Shown piece by piece: positions 37,184-50,041 of a stretch of DNA of 64,000 nucleotides. The stretch spans positions 96,001 through 160,000 of the forward strand of contig CAVZZA010000005.1 of the NCBI GenBank assembly GCA_963779615.1, in the 5' to 3' direction. The notes under the pieces were generated by a model. It worked only from the letters and a program-made list of their open reading frames with translations, was not told the origin of the DNA and did not search any database. This stretch comes from an uncultured Nitrososphaeraceae archaeon. GTDB lineage: Archaea > Thermoproteota > Nitrososphaeria > Nitrososphaerales > Nitrososphaeraceae. The position numbers and the translations under genes were made by a program. Positions within the stretch are counted from its first letter, which is position 1. Every line of letters begins with the position of its first letter.

Positions 37184-38659
37184 TCATAGTATGTTCTCAA
37201 ATCCATAACTTGACCATTTATTATCCACCATAATCTTTGTTTTTTCATCAACATTAACTTCTTCCTGAATATCTCTTTGAAATCCTTCTTCTTTCCATTT
37301 AGTTGTGGCATCGATACCCATTTTAGAGCCAAGGTTGACAAGGGGAGACGCTGGGTCGAGAGTATCTGTCGGGGCATTTTCGATTAATAGCGTATCTCGT
37401 TTGGGATCAGCTTTAGTTGTAATTGCCCAAATAACTTGATCAATATCATGAACATTAATTTTGTGATCCACTACCACAAAAATTTTGGTTAACGATAGCT
37501 GCCCCATACCCCAAAGTCCTAACATAACTTTTTTAGCTTGTCCTGGGTACCTTTTTCTTATGGAAAAAATTGCAAGACCTTGGAACCAGCCCGCAGGAGG
37601 CATTGAATAATCCACTACCTCAGGTTGAAACATTTGAATTAGTGGGAGGAATGACTGTTCAATCACCTTACCAAAATATGCATCCTCAAGAATAGGCTTT
37701 CCGACCACAGTTGTTAAATAAATAGGCTCTTCCTTTTGCATGACTCCAGTTAATTGGAATGTTGGAAAAAGATCAGGAGGTGTATAGTAACCGGTATGAT
37801 CTCCAAAAGGTCCCTCGACCTCAAGTTTAGTTGGGTCAACCAATCCCTCGAACACTATTTCAGCATTTGCAGGAACTTCCAGATCAACAGTAGAGCATTT
37901 TACAAGTTTAATTCCCTTTTTTCTTGATATTCCAGCGAATAGAAATTTATCCAAACCTTCGGGAACTGGAGCAATACTACTAAATATAGTACCGGGGTCG
38001 GACCCGATAACTACTGCAGCTTCTATAGGTTTTTGCGAATCTTTTGAGATTTCAAAATGTTGTGCACCGCGCTTGTGAGTTTGCCAATGCATTATAGCCT
38101 TTTTGTTATTTACTATTTGGATTCGATATACACCGATATTTCTTATCCCAGTTTCAGGATGTTTTGTTACTGTCATCCCAAAGGTTATAAACCGACCAGC
38201 ATCTTTGATAAATGATTTAAGAATTGGAAAGTCATTAAAAGACGGATTGGTTGTATTTATTTTATCTTGAATAGGACCCTTGTCGACAATTTTTGGTCCA
38301 TACTCAGATATTTCTGAAAGTTTTGGCAACATTCGAATCTTATTTAGAACCCCACTTGGCATTTTCAATTTAGTTAGATCCACTATCCTATTGCCAATTT
38401 CGGTAAAATCCTGTAGATCTAACGCTATTTGCAATCTCTTTAAAGAACCAAATGCATTTCCAAGTATGGGAATATCAAACCCTTTAACATTTTCAAATAA
38501 TAAAGCAGGACTTTTTCCAGAGTACATCAACCTTCGCATTATTTCTGCGATCTCTAAATCTGAACTTACTTCAACATTTACCCTTTTTAGTTCACCAATC
38601 GGCTCAAGAGCATTCAACAAATTCCAATAAATTATCAAAAGCCATATATGATATTTCAA
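37184..38659 (-). CDS. UbiD-family (prFMN-dependent) decarboxylase
   Basis: NIGVYR, MHW, EGPFGDHTGYY, GKPILED, DTLDPAS, KMGIDAT; true start probably slightly downstream. Confidence 0.95.
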   Translation of the reverse strand: MKYHIWLLIIYWNLLNALEPIGELKRVNVEVSSDLEIAEIMRRLMYSGKSPALLFENVKGFDIPILGNAFGSLKRLQIALDLQDFTEIGNRIVDLTKLKMPSGVLNKIRMLPKLSEISEYGPKIVDKGPIQDKINTTNPSFNDFPILKSFIKDAGRFITFGMTVTKHPETGIRNIGVYRIQIVNNKKAIMHWQTHKRGAQHFEISKDSQKPIEAAVVIGSDPGTIFSSIAPVPEGLDKFLFAGISRKKGIKLVKCSTVDLEVPANAEIVFEGLVDPTKLEVEGPFGDHTGYYTPPDLFPTFQLTGVMQKEEPIYLTTVVGKPILEDAYFGKVIEQSFLPLIQMFQPEVVDYSMPPAGWFQGLAIFSIRKRYPGQAKKVMLGLWGMGQLSLTKIFVVVDHKINVHDIDQVIWAITTKADPKRDTLLIENAPTDTLDPASPLVNLGSKMGIDATTKWKEEGFQRDIQEEVNVDEKTKIMVDNKWSSYGFENIL

Positions 38660-38771
38660 TAAGGTATACCTTATTTAATTATAAATGTAAAAATAATAAA
38701 TAAAAAAATATTTTTATGGACTATTTGAATAATTTTTTGACTTGTTTGTTTTTTTTATCTGCGGTAATCTA

Positions 38772-39032
38772 TTATTGAGTCATATTGCCTGGCATCATCA
38801 TAGTTGAATTGCCCATTGGCATCATGCTGTGGTCCATCATCATAGTTGAACTGCCATTTGGACTTGCATTCATTGCTGAGCTATCATTCATACCAACGTT
38901 AGATGTATTTGCATTTTGTGTTGTTGAGGGACTGGTCATATTTTGTTGTGCTAAGGCGGGTGCTGCTAAACCTACAATCAAGGTCACAGCTGCTACGATA
39001 CTTACAATTGCAATAAAGTTTAATTTATACAT
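38772..39032 (-). CDS. secreted Met-rich small protein, copy A (86 aa)
   Basis: Signal peptide MYKLNF...AAPALA, then a 58-aa Met/Asn/Ser/Thr-rich tail; paralogue adjacent. Confidence 0.85.
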   Translation of the reverse strand: MYKLNFIAIVSIVAAVTLIVGLAAPALAQQNMTSPSTTQNANTSNVGMNDSSAMNASPNGSSTMMMDHSMMPMGNSTMMMPGNMTQ

Positions 39033-39403
39033 GCAAAACAAGTTATATTTTACGGATATATAACACCTTTGGTCATAGAATATTTATAAAATAAACGCAA
39101 AATAAATAATAGTTTTATGGTCTATTATGAATAATTTCTATCCTTTTTAATGATTTATTTTCTAATAATTGTTTTTTATCAGCGTGTCAAATTGTGTGGC
39201 ATTATAATTGTACTATTGCTATTCATCATTGTTGAACCACCATCTGCCATTGTGATGTTGTCCATGGCGGTCATATTTTGTTGTGCTAAGGCGGGTGCTG
39301 CTAAACCTACAATCAAGGTCACAGCTGCTACGATACTTACAATTGCAATAAAGTTTAATTTATACATGCAAAACAAGTTATATTTTACGGATATATAACA
39401 CCT
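38934..39403. repeat. 135-bp perfect direct repeat (38934-39068 and 39269-39403)
   Basis: Read directly; covers TATA region, start codon, signal peptide and the first mature codons. Confidence 0.95.
39179..39367 (-). CDS. secreted Met-rich small protein, copy B (62 aa)
   Basis: Identical signal peptide; 34-aa mature part. Confidence 0.82.
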   Translation of the reverse strand: MYKLNFIAIVSIVAAVTLIVGLAAPALAQQNMTAMDNITMADGGSTMMNSNSTIIMPHNLTR

Positions 39404-39499
39404 CTGCCATTTACTAATAAGCAATATGGCCATTATTTACAAATATTTTTGGATTGAAAAAGTTATTATTCATGCAATCAAACCAAAAAAAATAGTGAA

Positions 39500-39928
39500 T
39501 TATTGATGCAGTTTTAAGAGATTTGATTTGTTTTGATTTATCAACGGAATTATCTTTTCAGTTAATAATTGATGTAAATTGGCAGTATCTGGATCGAAAG
39601 ACAGCAATAAAACATAAGATAATTTACTATATTCATCTGTGATAGGAATAGTAGCCCTCATCAATTTTTCAAATTTGGAGCTGGCATACTGAATCTTTCC
39701 CAGCATATATTCCCATCTTAATCTTGTGAATTGTCTTGTAGCAGCAGTAATTGCATATTGTACTCTTTCTTCAGGGGTTAACAACGGATTAAGACCAGGT
39801 CTTTCAGCCATTGATTCTAATTTACCATCCTCATCCGCAATTCCAGCAAAACGTATTTTATTGTCTAAATCTATAACCTGCTTACAGAATTTGTTGAATA
39901 CTTCTTCGTCTTTTTCCTCCCTATTCAT
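39500..39928 (-). CDS. roadblock/longin-like thaumarchaeal protein (DUF6659-like)
   Basis: IRFAGI.D..GK, R.GL.PLL, LGK..Y.....EKL.R..IP pattern. Confidence 0.75.
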   Translation of the reverse strand: MNREEKDEEVFNKFCKQVIDLDNKIRFAGIADEDGKLESMAERPGLNPLLTPEERVQYAITAATRQFTRLRWEYMLGKIQYASSKFEKLMRATIPITDEYSKLSYVLLLSFDPDTANLHQLLTEKIIPLINQNKSNLLKLHQ

Positions 39929-40004: not shown

Positions 40005-41828
40005 TTATTGGTTTGGAAGAAAAGAATCACAGAATTCTTTATCGAGCATTTTATAACACGAATTTAAAAAGTCTTTCAAAATTCCATCAGGGTCTTTGGG
40101 TAAATCGTATAATGGCGGATTTGGCTCTAACAGGTTGTTATTTCTATTATCCATAATTAATGGCCTTTCCTTGAACTCCGTTAGATTAACATTCTTTGCC
40201 ATTTGTTCACCATCCCTAATTATAGCAATAACCACAGTATCACCAATTTTTTTTGCTGAAAGATATTTTTTAATATCTTGTTGATTTTTCACGTCATTGT
40301 TATCAATTTTTATAATAACATCCCCGCCTAATTCTATAGGATTGCCATTAAGCTCAGAGATGATATATCCTCCTTGAAGATTGGCTTTTGAGGCAGGACT
40401 TTGATCCAAGACACCAGTAATCAAAAATCCATCGTTTCTACTTAAGTTCATCATTGCTGCGATAGCAGGGGTGACATCAAGTCCGATAACTCCTAAAGAA
40501 GGAGTAGAAGCAGAACTTAAATTAAGATCGGGTCGAGAAGTCAATGTCAGGGGAACTACTTTAGACTCATTGCCGTCTCTCCAGACAGTAAGAGAAACAT
40601 TGCTTCCAATTTTTTTATTATTTTCTAAATAAGATAATATGTCATCTAATTTTTTCACAGTCTTGTTATCAATTTTTATAATAACATCCCCGCCTAATTC
40701 CACAGGTCTACCATTGATTTGATATGTCGTATTTCCTCCTTTTATTCCGGCTAAATATGCAGGACTATCCTTTGTAACATTAACAACAAGAAACCCTGAA
40801 GATTCATTTAAATTCATTAATTTTGCTATATCAGGGGTAACCTCAGTTCCCGATATACCGATATATGGATGTTTATAGGTTTCACCAGCTATTAACGTCG
40901 GAATAATTTTAATTAATAAATTAGAAGGTATTGAGAAACCTATTCCAATATAAGCGCCAGTATTTGAAAAAATTGCAGTGTTAATTCCAATTACCTGACC
41001 TTTCATATTTAATAGAGGGCCACCAGAATTTCCAGGATTTATTGCTGCATCCGTTTGAATAATGTCAGGTATGGAAAATGAGGGAACATTTGTAGGCATA
41101 TTTTGAAGGTCATAAGGTTGAGAAGGGGGAATAAATTGAATAGTATTTGCGGGCATTAATCTGCCAAGGCCACTAATTATACCGTCTGTTAAAGAGCCAG
41201 ATAAACCAAAAGGATTTCCAACTGCAACCACTCTTTCCCCTACTTTTAAGTTTGTAGAATTTCCGAGATCTAAAGGAACCAATTTTGATTGTGCATCTTT
41301 ATGCTGAGTTAAGTTAAGTAATTTTATGACTGCCAGATCAGCATAGGGATCAGTCCCACTAATTTCTGCCTCATAGGATACACCGTCTAAAAATGTGACA
41401 TAAACTGTATTATTTTTTGCTCCCTCTACCACATGATAATTTGTTATGATATGCCCGTTCTTATCATAAACAAAGCCTGAACCTAACCTTGAACCTGCAA
41501 TATCGCTCTGTTGTTTCATATTTGCTGGATCGGTAATTTGAACAACAGATTCTTTAACATAATTAAATAGATCAGGTAATGAGGATGAAAAGTTTCTACC
41601 TGAATTTAACGTTCTTTCACTGGTTGTGCTTAAAGACGTATCTATATTTTTAGTTGTATTAACAGAGTCACCCTGCAAGACGGAAGAGTTTAAAACTTGT
41701 CCGTATATATCTTTGTAAAAAGATAAGCTACCAAACATTAGAAAAGTAATTGTAAAGCATAACATAAATTTAAAAATTTTTCCATGACAATTAATTACAT
41801 TAATCAAAGACCTTTTTTCCTTGACCAT
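40005..41828 (-). CDS. HtrA/DegP-like trypsin serine protease with two PDZ domains
   Basis: GSGF, TNYHVV, DLAVIK, QTDAAINPGNSGGPL; two GDVIIKID PDZ modules; N-terminal TM. Confidence 0.96.
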   Translation of the reverse strand: MVKEKRSLINVINCHGKIFKFMLCFTITFLMFGSLSFYKDIYGQVLNSSVLQGDSVNTTKNIDTSLSTTSERTLNSGRNFSSSLPDLFNYVKESVVQITDPANMKQQSDIAGSRLGSGFVYDKNGHIITNYHVVEGAKNNTVYVTFLDGVSYEAEISGTDPYADLAVIKLLNLTQHKDAQSKLVPLDLGNSTNLKVGERVVAVGNPFGLSGSLTDGIISGLGRLMPANTIQFIPPSQPYDLQNMPTNVPSFSIPDIIQTDAAINPGNSGGPLLNMKGQVIGINTAIFSNTGAYIGIGFSIPSNLLIKIIPTLIAGETYKHPYIGISGTEVTPDIAKLMNLNESSGFLVVNVTKDSPAYLAGIKGGNTTYQINGRPVELGGDVIIKIDNKTVKKLDDILSYLENNKKIGSNVSLTVWRDGNESKVVPLTLTSRPDLNLSSASTPSLGVIGLDVTPAIAAMMNLSRNDGFLITGVLDQSPASKANLQGGYIISELNGNPIELGGDVIIKIDNNDVKNQQDIKKYLSAKKIGDTVVIAIIRDGEQMAKNVNLTEFKERPLIMDNRNNNLLEPNPPLYDLPKDPDGILKDFLNSCYKMLDKEFCDSFLPNQ

Positions 41829-44000: not shown

Positions 44001-44612
44001 TATAACGAAACTTTAAGAAATCTTTGTTATTTAGATGTTTTTTAAATTGATTTATTCAGTAATCTTATAAAATAAAATATCATTAACCAAAAAATAATAA
44101 ATAATGCAATTAAAATAAAATAAAGAACAATATTGTTGTAGGATCAATCCCCACCATCATTATTATCATCTTCAACCATACTGACAATTCTATTATAATT
44201 ACTATCAATTTTATTTATAAATAGACTTATTCATAGACATGTGTTTACAAACAGGATACCATTAACGTTATCCAATGCAACATTTTTTCCACTACAGCAA
44301 TAAAGATAACAATAACAGCAACACTAAAGGAGAAACAAGGAAAAAGAATTCTTTACGCACAAAATAACCAAAAGGCAACAAAGCGTATGGAAACAAAATA
44401 TAGAGATAGTATGTAGGCTGAACCATTGTATTTGTCCATGTCTGTGTTCGTGTGATGTACGCACCATTACAGCAATTGTAGTAGTAGTAGTTGTAGTGGC
44501 AACAATAATCTGGCTGTAACCCAGCAAATTGGTGTCATAACAGTTCCTACGGTAATTCAAATTTTATAATGCTTTATCCTTTTTTTCTGTCTGTCGGTTT
44601 TGTTTTGTCAAC

Positions 44613-47563
<2,951 letters not shown>

Positions 47564-48571
47564 CACCAGCTCCAGTTTTGTTTCCAGTTTTGCTGGATAG
47601 AGATTATTTTTAATTTGACCTTTGATGATCATTTCCTTATCATGATCTTAGTCTAGTCACTCGATAGATCGAGTTCCACAATCCAGTGATAATAATTAAC
47701 ACATCTTCAACGGTTGTTTTACACGTATGACACTATTACTCCACTTTTCTGCTGTTTTTTTACTGCCTACAACTATGATTACTACTGCAACTATTACTTC
47801 AACAACAACTATAATCGTGTTTACATCACACATCACACAAACAAAGACAAAAACAACACTTCAACCTATATAGTACCTGTATTATTCCTGTTCCATATCT
47901 TTTACTTTTTGGTTATTTTGTTATTGCGCGAATGCTCTAGCCGTTTCTTTCTTTATCATTTTCTTGCTGTAATTGCTACTGTTGCGCTGTCGATATTGCT
48001 TTTGTTTTTGGCTTGATGTATGTTTTTTGTATATTCACATATTTGTGCAATATGCATACTTTTGTTCATGTTTGTATTGATTGTTTATTTGTTTTGTCAT
48101 CTATCAATCAGATAGTAATACTATGATGGAGTTTGATCCTATACACGGCATCATCGCAGGCAGCACCACTACATTTTATGTAGGGTACTCTGCTACGCCA
48201 ACTTCATCCTTTGTCTCCCCAACTCCTCAGTTTTGTGACAAAGAATTGCATCCGTTTTTTTTTATTTACTAATTCAGTGGTTTTTTTTGTTCGGTAATAC
48301 TGACTTGACTTTATGCATGCAAAAATACCAGATAGACATTTAATATTAATTAACTGCTCTCTGAGACCATATGTCGTATATTCTCTCACAGAGCGTAATA
48401 TTGCTGTTCATCATAATACTTGCACAGACATCATCAGCAGATTCTGCATTTATAATGCATATAACACAATATCCATAAAAACATCGAACATGATGATTAG
48501 TTAGTCTTTTCCTCCCTCTTCACCCATTTTTCTCTTTTTGTCTTATGCTCTGTGTTGCAAGATGATAACTA

Positions 48572-50041
<1,470 letters not shown>

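Follow-up and report, generated by a model that had tools for sequence, protein, structure and literature searches.

The window analysed here is a 64,000-nucleotide (nt) stretch, G000:C5:96001-160000 (contig CAVZZA010000005.1), of the 3.17-Mb assembly G000 (GCA_963779615.1; guanine-plus-cytosine (GC) content roughly 32%) of an uncultured Nitrososphaeraceae archaeon. It carries two adjacent minus-strand genes, A and B, which we assign as tandem paralogues of an undescribed family of small peptides, predicted to be exported and restricted to Candidatus Nitrosocosmicus. With moderate confidence, we propose that both products are Sec-exported, densely N-glycosylated and disordered peptides of the coat or matrix of these S-layer-free cells, and that their thioether side chains could hold Cu(I). 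In this proposal the glycopeptide character is the primary trait, and Cu(I) binding is a plausible second, less certain layer of explanation.

Gene A (38772..39032, minus strand; stop codon 38772-38774) specifies an 86-amino-acid (aa) pre-peptide whose ATG start is conserved family-wide and is matched by RNA-library contigs at no less than 99% identity. Gene B (39179..39367, minus strand; stop codon 39179-39181) specifies a 62-aa pre-peptide and is matched by RNA contigs of run X1. The initial annotation described an identical block shared by the two genes, covering the promoter, the leader and the first mature codons, and direct comparison bears this out: the exactly identical run is 135 nt long, with 36 nt before the ATG and 99 coding nt (33 codons), and lies at 38934..39068 for A and 39269..39403 for B, both on the minus strand. 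A repeat search returned it as a direct repeat of 138 nt at 99-100% identity (38934-39071 versus 39269-39406). Codons 1-28 encode the leader, located at 38949..39032 (minus strand) in A, where it consists of an n-region MYK, a hydrophobic helix and a c-region APALA, and at 39284-39367 (minus strand) in B. Cleavage after Ala28 would leave a mature peptide of 58 aa with 13 Met, 7 sequons (N-x-S/T) and one His for A (38775..38948, minus strand), and of 34 aa with 6 Met and 4 sequons for B (39182-39283, minus strand), and our recount agrees with the lengths, Met numbers and sequon numbers first reported. Both mature peptides are predicted to start with QQN, and both are free of internal Lys and Arg, so the products would escape standard tryptic proteomics. 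The reported repetition of STMMM in A was likewise recovered: a unit of the NSTMMM type occurs twice as a 27-nt direct repeat (38793-38819 and 38835-38861, spanning 38793..38861 on the minus strand; 89% identity), and the 42-nt spacing places the STMMM units 14 codons apart.

Each cassette copy also contains a TATA-like heptamer. In A it reads TTATATA and starts 31 nt before the ATG (39057..39063, minus strand), and in B it lies at the same distance from the ATG (39392..39398, minus strand). Because these boxes fall inside the duplicated block, each gene copy carries its own promoter. Of 33 unique upstream regions in the family, 32 have a TATA-like heptamer that begins 36 to 28 nt before the ATG, most often at -31, and this spacing suggests leaderless or nearly leaderless mRNA. 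A T7 run ~65 nt past the stop codon of A (38702..38708, minus strand) is a candidate archaeal oligo-T terminator and resembles the AAACTATATTTTTTT-type tails found downstream of many family members. A scan for bacterial sigma-70 promoters and hairpin terminators, whose scope does not extend to archaeal signals, gave promoter-like sites no more often than in shuffled sequence and no terminator-like site.

The family leaders follow the class I pattern of Sec substrates cleaved by signal peptidase I (SPase I), with cleavage predicted: a basic n-region, in which Lys3 is invariant in the alignment, is followed by a hydrophobic h-region, a helix breaker and small residues at -3/-1. AlphaFold predicts a helix at residues 4-22 of the leader and coil for the remainder, with a predicted local distance difference test (pLDDT) score of 47-57. 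In all subfamilies the c-region has Pro, small residues at -3/-1, and then Gln or Ala; the cleavage site reads P-A-L-A then Q in A and B, and P-A-A-F-A, P-V-F-A or P-I-F-A then Q or A in relatives. Two other leader types were considered and rejected. A class III signal, as in type IV pilins, has Lys or Arg and then Gly, Ala or Ser directly before the hydrophobic stretch; in the leaders here, M-Y/S/N-K-L/F-N, the Lys is followed by Leu or Phe instead. The lipobox motif is absent from the leaders.

Sequons are far more frequent in the mature peptides than in shuffled versions of them, with 7 against 2.39 expected in A (p = 0.0005) and 4 against 1.07 in B (p = 0.008), and 49 of 52 members exceed their own shuffles at p < 0.05. 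The genome has 306 small open reading frames (ORFs) that begin like a signal peptide; in this set A and B are first and third in sequon density, and first and second in Met fraction. Their density of one sequon per 8.3-8.5 aa compares with one per 40 in the HtrA-like protein encoded nearby and one per 491 in the neighbouring cytoplasmic UbiD. Over 47 unique members the median density is one per 8.5 residues and the lowest one per 14, 265 of 343 Asn residues (77%) lie inside sequons, and Met, Asn, Ser, Thr and Gly together make up 71% of the mature parts, Met alone 17%. When 80 unique members are considered, 76 have at least one sequon per 14 residues, and the 439 sequons observed compare with a shuffle mean of 153 ± 10. 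Short motifs are enriched as well, namely N-M-S/T (129 versus a shuffle mean of 27), N-x-S/T-M (143 versus 26), D-N (105 versus 28) and MxM (158 versus 91 ± 9); none of 500 shuffles reaches any of these counts or the sequon total, and MxxM (88 versus 72) is reached by 12 of 500. The counts indicate a cargo assembled from units such as D/G-N-(M/S/A)-T-M. Since sequon density is constant and Met content variable, the glycopeptide character emerges as the core trait and Met as a frequent second layer.

Met accounts for 22% of mature A and 18% of mature B. A six-frame scan of the genome found only 52 open segments with a 58-residue window of at least 8 Met; gene A, with 13, ranks within the first twelve, and simple repeats account for several of the remainder. 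A long (ATG)n microsatellite outside the window (G000:C5, ~530.1-530.5 kb, plus strand) forms a run of about 49 Met codons in one frame. The motif M-D-H-S/G lies within the Met clusters of A, of the relatives P0001 and P0049 and of the MNK-type subfamily. A short C-terminal pattern, a sequon and then K, R or Q, recurs in the family, and a few members have further C-terminal modules, namely Cys-rich tails, acidic tails and one domain of ~130 aa without an assigned family. Several other small ORFs of the same genome, outside the window, have different signal-peptide-like leaders ending in A-x-A then Q and a sequon-dense, Met-poor cargo of tandem repeats (offsets C3 + 1180529, C4 + 298022 and C5 + 438958, and on the reverse complement C5 149839, C3 491964 and C3 353363). 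Small exported sequon-rich peptides seem to form a broader class in the source organism.

A profile built from 20 members was used to search genomes of the genus and the family. All 21 other Nitrosocosmicus genomes match strongly (E ≤ 1e-17), with 2-7 matches per genome, and in 17 other Nitrososphaeraceae genera 26 of 129 genomes match, only weakly (E 1e-4 to 1e-8); the tally includes one unpublished genome, G111. The source genome itself holds two copies only, plus a weak third match (C1:616410-616517, E 5.9e-5). Among 1.84 billion representative proteins, the profile finds 75 matches at E ≤ 1e-3, 23 of which reach E ≤ 1e-10, and every one is 41-192 aa long; a single-sequence protein search returned 16 proteins, which are 62-101 aa long and lack Pfam domains. 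None of 130 candidate longer proteins scored for the leader, which is weak evidence. As all homologues are short, they are not the N-termini of known larger proteins, and the idea of a constant leader with variable cargo, put forward from the two genes of the window, holds for the family at large. Pfam and NCBIfam scans of A and B returned sub-threshold noise only (Cytomega_UL20A, WGxxGxxG), a phmmer search with mature A found 0 PDB matches at E ≤ 10, and the ESM Atlas contributed only unnamed Nitrososphaerota clusters at scores of 0.85-0.88, which are leads at most. The remark in the initial annotation that no such system was known stands after literature searches that included term look-ups in main texts: no description of such peptides turned up, and no homologue of A or B is described in the literature searched. 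At four loci with weak matches in other genera (L043-L046, in genomes G162, G089, G152 and G135), the products are small secreted peptides rich in G-G-N-M-T or in Met and acidic residues, their leaders are unrelated, and they do not lie at the slot between the DUF6659-like gene and UbiD. These peptides are analogous, and either very distant kin or convergent.

RNA libraries contain both genes. In the region 38650-39480, 22-29% of sampled words are present in 20 RNA runs from 13 studies; these runs were chosen for containing the gene, and habitat range and expression rank lie outside their scope. Gene A is covered in all four aligned runs, which come from four studies (soil, paddy, rhizosphere and ice), by contigs of 216-328 nt at ≥99% identity: 216 nt in run X1 (38748-38963, 1 difference), 328 nt in X2 (38733-39028, 3 differences and 1 gap), 302 nt in X3 (38748-39049, 3 differences) and 220 nt in X4 (38761-38980, 0 differences). 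Gene B is represented in X1 by contigs of 121 and 91 nt covering 39178-39298 and 39269-39359. No contig of the four aligned runs lies in the spacer 39070-39153, although contigs cannot prove absence. Since the contigs are gene-sized and end near the gene borders, short discrete RNAs fit them better than contaminating DNA, and the family is apparently well transcribed in soils.

Comparison within and between genomes points to gene conversion acting on the 5' promoter-leader cassette, with the cargo probably changed by repeat slippage and recombination. Inside 6 of 8 assemblies with at least two copies, the 84-nt leader is identical at 84 of 84 positions, and cargo identity there is about 50-80%. 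Within a genome, promoter plus leader are 0.96-0.97 identical in two of three species and 0.88 in the third, while genes of one cargo type from different genomes share 0.87-0.91 in this region. Cargo of type T1 shows 0.72-0.81 identity across genomes; within a genome, T1 and T2 are 0.64-0.65 identical in two of three species and 0.79 in the third, where the tail is shared. It is this combination, leaders and promoters that are alike within a genome while cargo types persist across species, that argues for gene conversion together with repeat slippage. Near relatives of A and B vary chiefly in unit number, one protein resembles the head of B joined to the tail of A, and cargo varies between close strains. 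In a four-copy array of genome G018 (L014/L035), two copies of 42 and 53 aa retain the leader and leave the cargo frame soon after; they look like frameshifted, decaying genes.

The genes around A and B are conserved in order. Upstream lies a gene for a DUF6659-like protein, scoring under the Pfam cut-off (39500..39928, minus strand), and further upstream one for an HtrA-like exported serine protease with PDZ domains and 15 sequons (40005..41828, minus strand); downstream lies a UbiD-family decarboxylase gene (37184..38659, minus strand). The conserved arrangement runs from the HtrA-like gene through the DUF6659-like gene and 1-4 peptide genes to UbiD and a 124-aa ORF. Among 19 best-hit loci from distinct genomes, peptide genes directly follow the DUF6659-like gene in 10, with UbiD next in 7 of these 10, and the flanking proteins are 77-87% (UbiD), 75-87% (DUF6659-like) and 53-65% (HtrA-like) identical to those of the window. 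The DUF6659-like gene directly adjoins UbiD in one other genus, which suggests that the peptide array was inserted between the two. The DUF6659-like family itself is multi-copy, with matches in all 41 Nitrososphaeraceae genomes searched, including the unpublished G072, and up to 13 matches each. The genus-wide distribution, the syntenic slot in many genomes, the concerted evolution of the leader and the presence in soil RNA libraries all extend the picture first drawn from two genes.

Based on these findings, we propose the following scenario. Each gene would be transcribed from the TATA promoter of its own duplicated cassette into a short monocistronic mRNA. The N-terminus (Lys, a helix of ~19 residues, Pro-Ala-x-x-Ala and then Gln) would serve as a Sec signal peptide and be removed by SPase I, and AglB would glycosylate the sequons, one per ~8 residues, on the unfolded chain while it emerges. 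The products would be disordered 'bottle-brush' peptides of 58 and 34 residues, with carbohydrate as most of their mass and possibly an N-terminal pyroglutamate on both. To our knowledge, an occupancy of about one N-glycan per 8 residues would make them the densest archaeal N-glycosylation substrates. The genome encodes an STT3/AglB homologue (PF02516 match of 93.7 bits at G000:C1:669061-669840), and N-glycosylation at N-X-S/T is demonstrated on three proteins of the related Nitrososphaera viennensis in the available text of one study (PMC12153357). If the glycans had the size of the 1.65-kDa N. viennensis glycan, sugar would make up about two-thirds of the mass of peptide A. The peptides would then join the glycocalyx or matrix of extracellular polymeric substances (EPS) that the genus carries in place of an S-layer; in the available portions of two reports, Nitrosocosmicus is described as S-layer-free and aggregate- or biofilm-forming, with a thick glycocalyx (PMC12448741, PMC13245735). 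Met residues between the glycans, as in MxM and N-M-T-M, may act in the coat layer as thioether ligands for Cu(I) or as an oxidant sink. Gene conversion would hold the leader and promoter identical in each genome, with the cargo shifting by slippage and recombination. With a glycan site every 8 residues as the most conserved trait, in a genus-restricted family, a glycan scaffold in the coat fits best. The initial picture of a secreted Met-rich glycopeptide therefore stands with respect to the Sec-type leader, the disordered, sequon-dense and Met-rich cargo and the AglB of the genome, but the Met richness is not family-wide.

Several observations weigh against this scenario. Family members contain between 0 and 35% Met (median 16%), and only 58 of 80 have at least 10%; a Met-dependent role therefore cannot hold family-wide. 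MM is depleted over the 80 unique members (66 observed versus a shuffle mean of 117), the MxM excess arises in part from the N-M-T-M unit, and the shuffle significance is overstated because related members are counted as independent. The RNA evidence consists of assembled contigs that do not give strand, ends or level, from libraries that may contain DNA, and the X3 contig extends 17 nt upstream of the ATG, a poor fit to a near-leaderless start. Partnership with the neighbours is not obligatory: in two complete genomes of the genus, only an empty spacer of ~360-430 nt separates the DUF6659-like gene from UbiD, and both genomes hold a second subfamily elsewhere, with a leader M-N-K-L/F-N, the same promoter element, and a cargo that is about one-third Met and contains the motif M-P-M-D-H-G. 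The link to the missing S-layer depends on one lineage, and it is not evident how a freely secreted peptide would be kept in the coat.

The last-mentioned difficulty would disappear if the signal were an uncleaved anchor, with the helix fixing the peptides in the membrane (N-terminus inside, C-terminus outside) as a brush of glycosylated surface tails. Anchoring would explain how so tiny a product is retained on an S-layer-free cell, helix 4-22 is of transmembrane length, and at the amino acid level the leader is conserved to much the same degree as the enzymes encoded nearby, far more than is usual in a signal peptide. However, the helix-breaking Pro, the small -3/-1 residues and the Gln are conserved across subfamilies for no evident reason unless the peptide is cut there, and A-x-A then Q also occurs in many other small exported ORFs of the genome; we regard the anchor as rather unlikely. 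Tandem arrays of 1-4 copies in which the leader stays constant and the cargo is hypervariable would suit diffusible signalling or competition peptides of a pheromone- or archaeocin-like kind, in which a conserved export leader precedes a fast-diversifying active part, in the manner of conotoxins, class II bacteriocins and Phr peptides. Cargo that differs between close strains and the recurring C-terminal sequon followed by K, R or Q could be read in this way, but the cargo is of low complexity and differs in repeat number, with no defined active peptide, and the conserved neighbourhood has no gene for a receptor, immunity, modification or a dedicated transporter. The leader is moreover of the hydrophobic Sec type and not a double-glycine leader or that of a ribosomally synthesized and post-translationally modified peptide (RiPP), and the neighbours (HtrA-like, DUF6659-like, UbiD, an ORF without family, ferritin-like and phosphatase) are not those of a RiPP or bacteriocin locus. 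Such a role is very unlikely. Most improbable of all is that the locus lacks meaningful protein coding and represents a small RNA, low-complexity DNA that is merely transcribed, or a gene of the other strand. The RNA contigs are silent on strand, and in 35 of 38 members one antisense frame runs open through >90% of the gene; over A and B this gives ORFs of 92 aa (38785-39063, plus strand) and 82 aa (39150-39398, plus strand). This openness is explained by codon composition, the sense peptide being nearly devoid of Tyr, His and Gln codons. The variable columns among 21 unique leader sequences are distributed 11/5/19 over codon positions 1/2/3, evidence on which the antisense ORF 38785-39063 is rejected as the true gene, and the share of codon differences that are synonymous reaches 0.49 when read in the sense frame, against no more than 0.38 for every other frame. 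In addition, the ATG keeps its distance from the TATA element in nearly all upstream regions, and the frame is kept through length changes in 80 unique members.

That A and B belong to dedicated copper peptides is a possibility we entertain only tentatively. Secreted peptides rich in Met, His and Asp would then be selected mainly for trapping or buffering Cu(I)/Cu(II), whether to supply extracytoplasmic copper enzymes or to keep the metal away from them; they would work like a chalkophore made on the ribosome or like a PcoE/SilE-type metal sponge, and the glycans would provide solubility and protease resistance only. The high Met share of both mature peptides, the MxM excess, the M-D-H-S/G motifs within Met clusters and the Cys-rich tails that end some members are consistent with this idea, and the clustered MxM/MxxM residues show the Mets-motif pattern, a likeness in working and not in homology. 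An amino-terminal Cu(II)- and Ni(II)-binding (ATCUN) site is a free N-terminus with His at position 3, and 7 of 47 relatives have such a His at the predicted mature end (A-Q-H or A-N-H); A and B, which start with Q-Q-N, have no X-X-His N-terminus. Thioether-only sites, however, bind Cu(I) weakly, and Met is below 10% in 22 of 80 members and lacking in some, while sequons are constant. The proposal that the peptides scavenge copper also finds no support in their context: no copper gene flanks the locus or occurs in the conserved neighbourhood (HtrA-like, DUF6659-like, UbiD, an ORF without family, ferritin-like), and the known copper families (CopC, CusF, PcoE/SilE, Ctr, DUF326/Csp) gave no Pfam or NCBIfam match above cut-off and 0 PDB matches at E ≤ 10. 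Ammonia-oxidizing archaea (AOA) are copper-dependent, and the EPS matrix is said to sequester copper in the available text of one report (PMC12448741); a term search of the main text of an N. viennensis copper-limitation study found no such peptides (PMC7785015), and the main texts searched held no data on Cu(I)/Ag(I) binding or copper-regulated expression. A bolder version, which we consider doubtful, is that Nitrosocosmicus has a genus-wide, highly expressed layer of secreted N-glycosylated metallopeptides whose MxM/His/Asp cargo captures copper in the coat and relays it to, or withholds it from, the extracytoplasmic copper enzymes of ammonia oxidation. Such a layer might, with no greater confidence, be an archaeal functional counterpart of chalkophores or of the Ctr1 ectodomain. 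Gene conversion would then keep the promoter-leader cassette uniform as the metal-binding cargo diverges from strain to strain.

The glycopeptide family bears on two open questions about AOA, namely copper acquisition and buffering, and the composition of the coat in the S-layer-free, biofilm-forming Nitrosocosmicus, and it offers concrete candidates for both. If gene conversion is the cause, the locus further provides a clear-cut case from nature in which conversion is limited to a promoter and signal-peptide cassette.

Other features of the genome were recorded alongside. A 122-aa Cys- and Met-rich protein outside the window (G000:C5:496945-497310; L083:146-511, plus strand) matches DUF326 at 31.3 bits and is near-identical at no fewer than five genome places, with copies on C4, C1 and C5; DUF326 proteins are Cys-rich four-helix-bundle copper-binding or storage proteins. 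A 206-aa exported protein on C4 (L084:225-842, minus strand), also outside the window, has a PepSY-like middle (sub-threshold) and a Met/His-rich C-terminal tail, and is another candidate extracytoplasmic soft-metal binder. The window itself contains complete archaeal 23S (44609-47572, minus strand) and 16S (48572-50041, minus strand) rRNA genes, which account for a local rise in GC to 42-47%.

The kinds of system that the family combines are known: mini-peptides that carry glycans, extracytoplasmic metal sites rich in Met, and families in which the leader is conserved and the cargo varies. Met-rich segments that bind Cu(I) include the Mets motifs (MxM, MxxM) of the Ctr1 ectodomain, periplasmic CopA/PcoA, PcoE/SilE and CueO. 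Like them, the Nitrosocosmicus peptides are disordered and predicted to be extracytoplasmic, with Met clusters, occasional His or Asp and enriched MxM. The Ctr1 ectodomain is in addition glycosylated and begins with an X-X-His site, as predicted for some of the relatives. In contrast to these segments of transporters and oxidases, A and B are free-standing peptides of 34-58 residues that show no sequence homology to any Pfam, NCBIfam or PDB entry and lie in no copper operon; their sequon density is far higher, and their metal binding is putative. Plant arabinogalactan peptides and mucin-type domains likewise combine a signal peptide with a short, disordered, low-complexity core of glycan sites, and form multigene families of variable repeat number. 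Here, however, glycosylation is predicted to be N-linked via AglB and not O-linked, the host is an archaeon, a glycosylphosphatidylinositol (GPI) or other anchor signal is lacking, and the Met richness is unparalleled in those families. The precursors of conotoxins, prochlorosin-type lanthipeptides and class II bacteriocins share the near-invariant leader, the divergent mature part and the multi-copy arrays, but the cargo here is repeat-like and not folded or modified, modifying enzymes and a dedicated exporter are absent nearby, and leader identity reaches into the promoter, which fits gene conversion. Closest in organism are the S-layer protein and multicopper oxidases of N. viennensis, from the same family, which follow the N-X-S/T rule and are exported; they are large and folded, and according to the available text the S-layer protein has about one N-glycan site per 240 residues (PMC12153357), compared with about one predicted site per 8 in the peptides described here.

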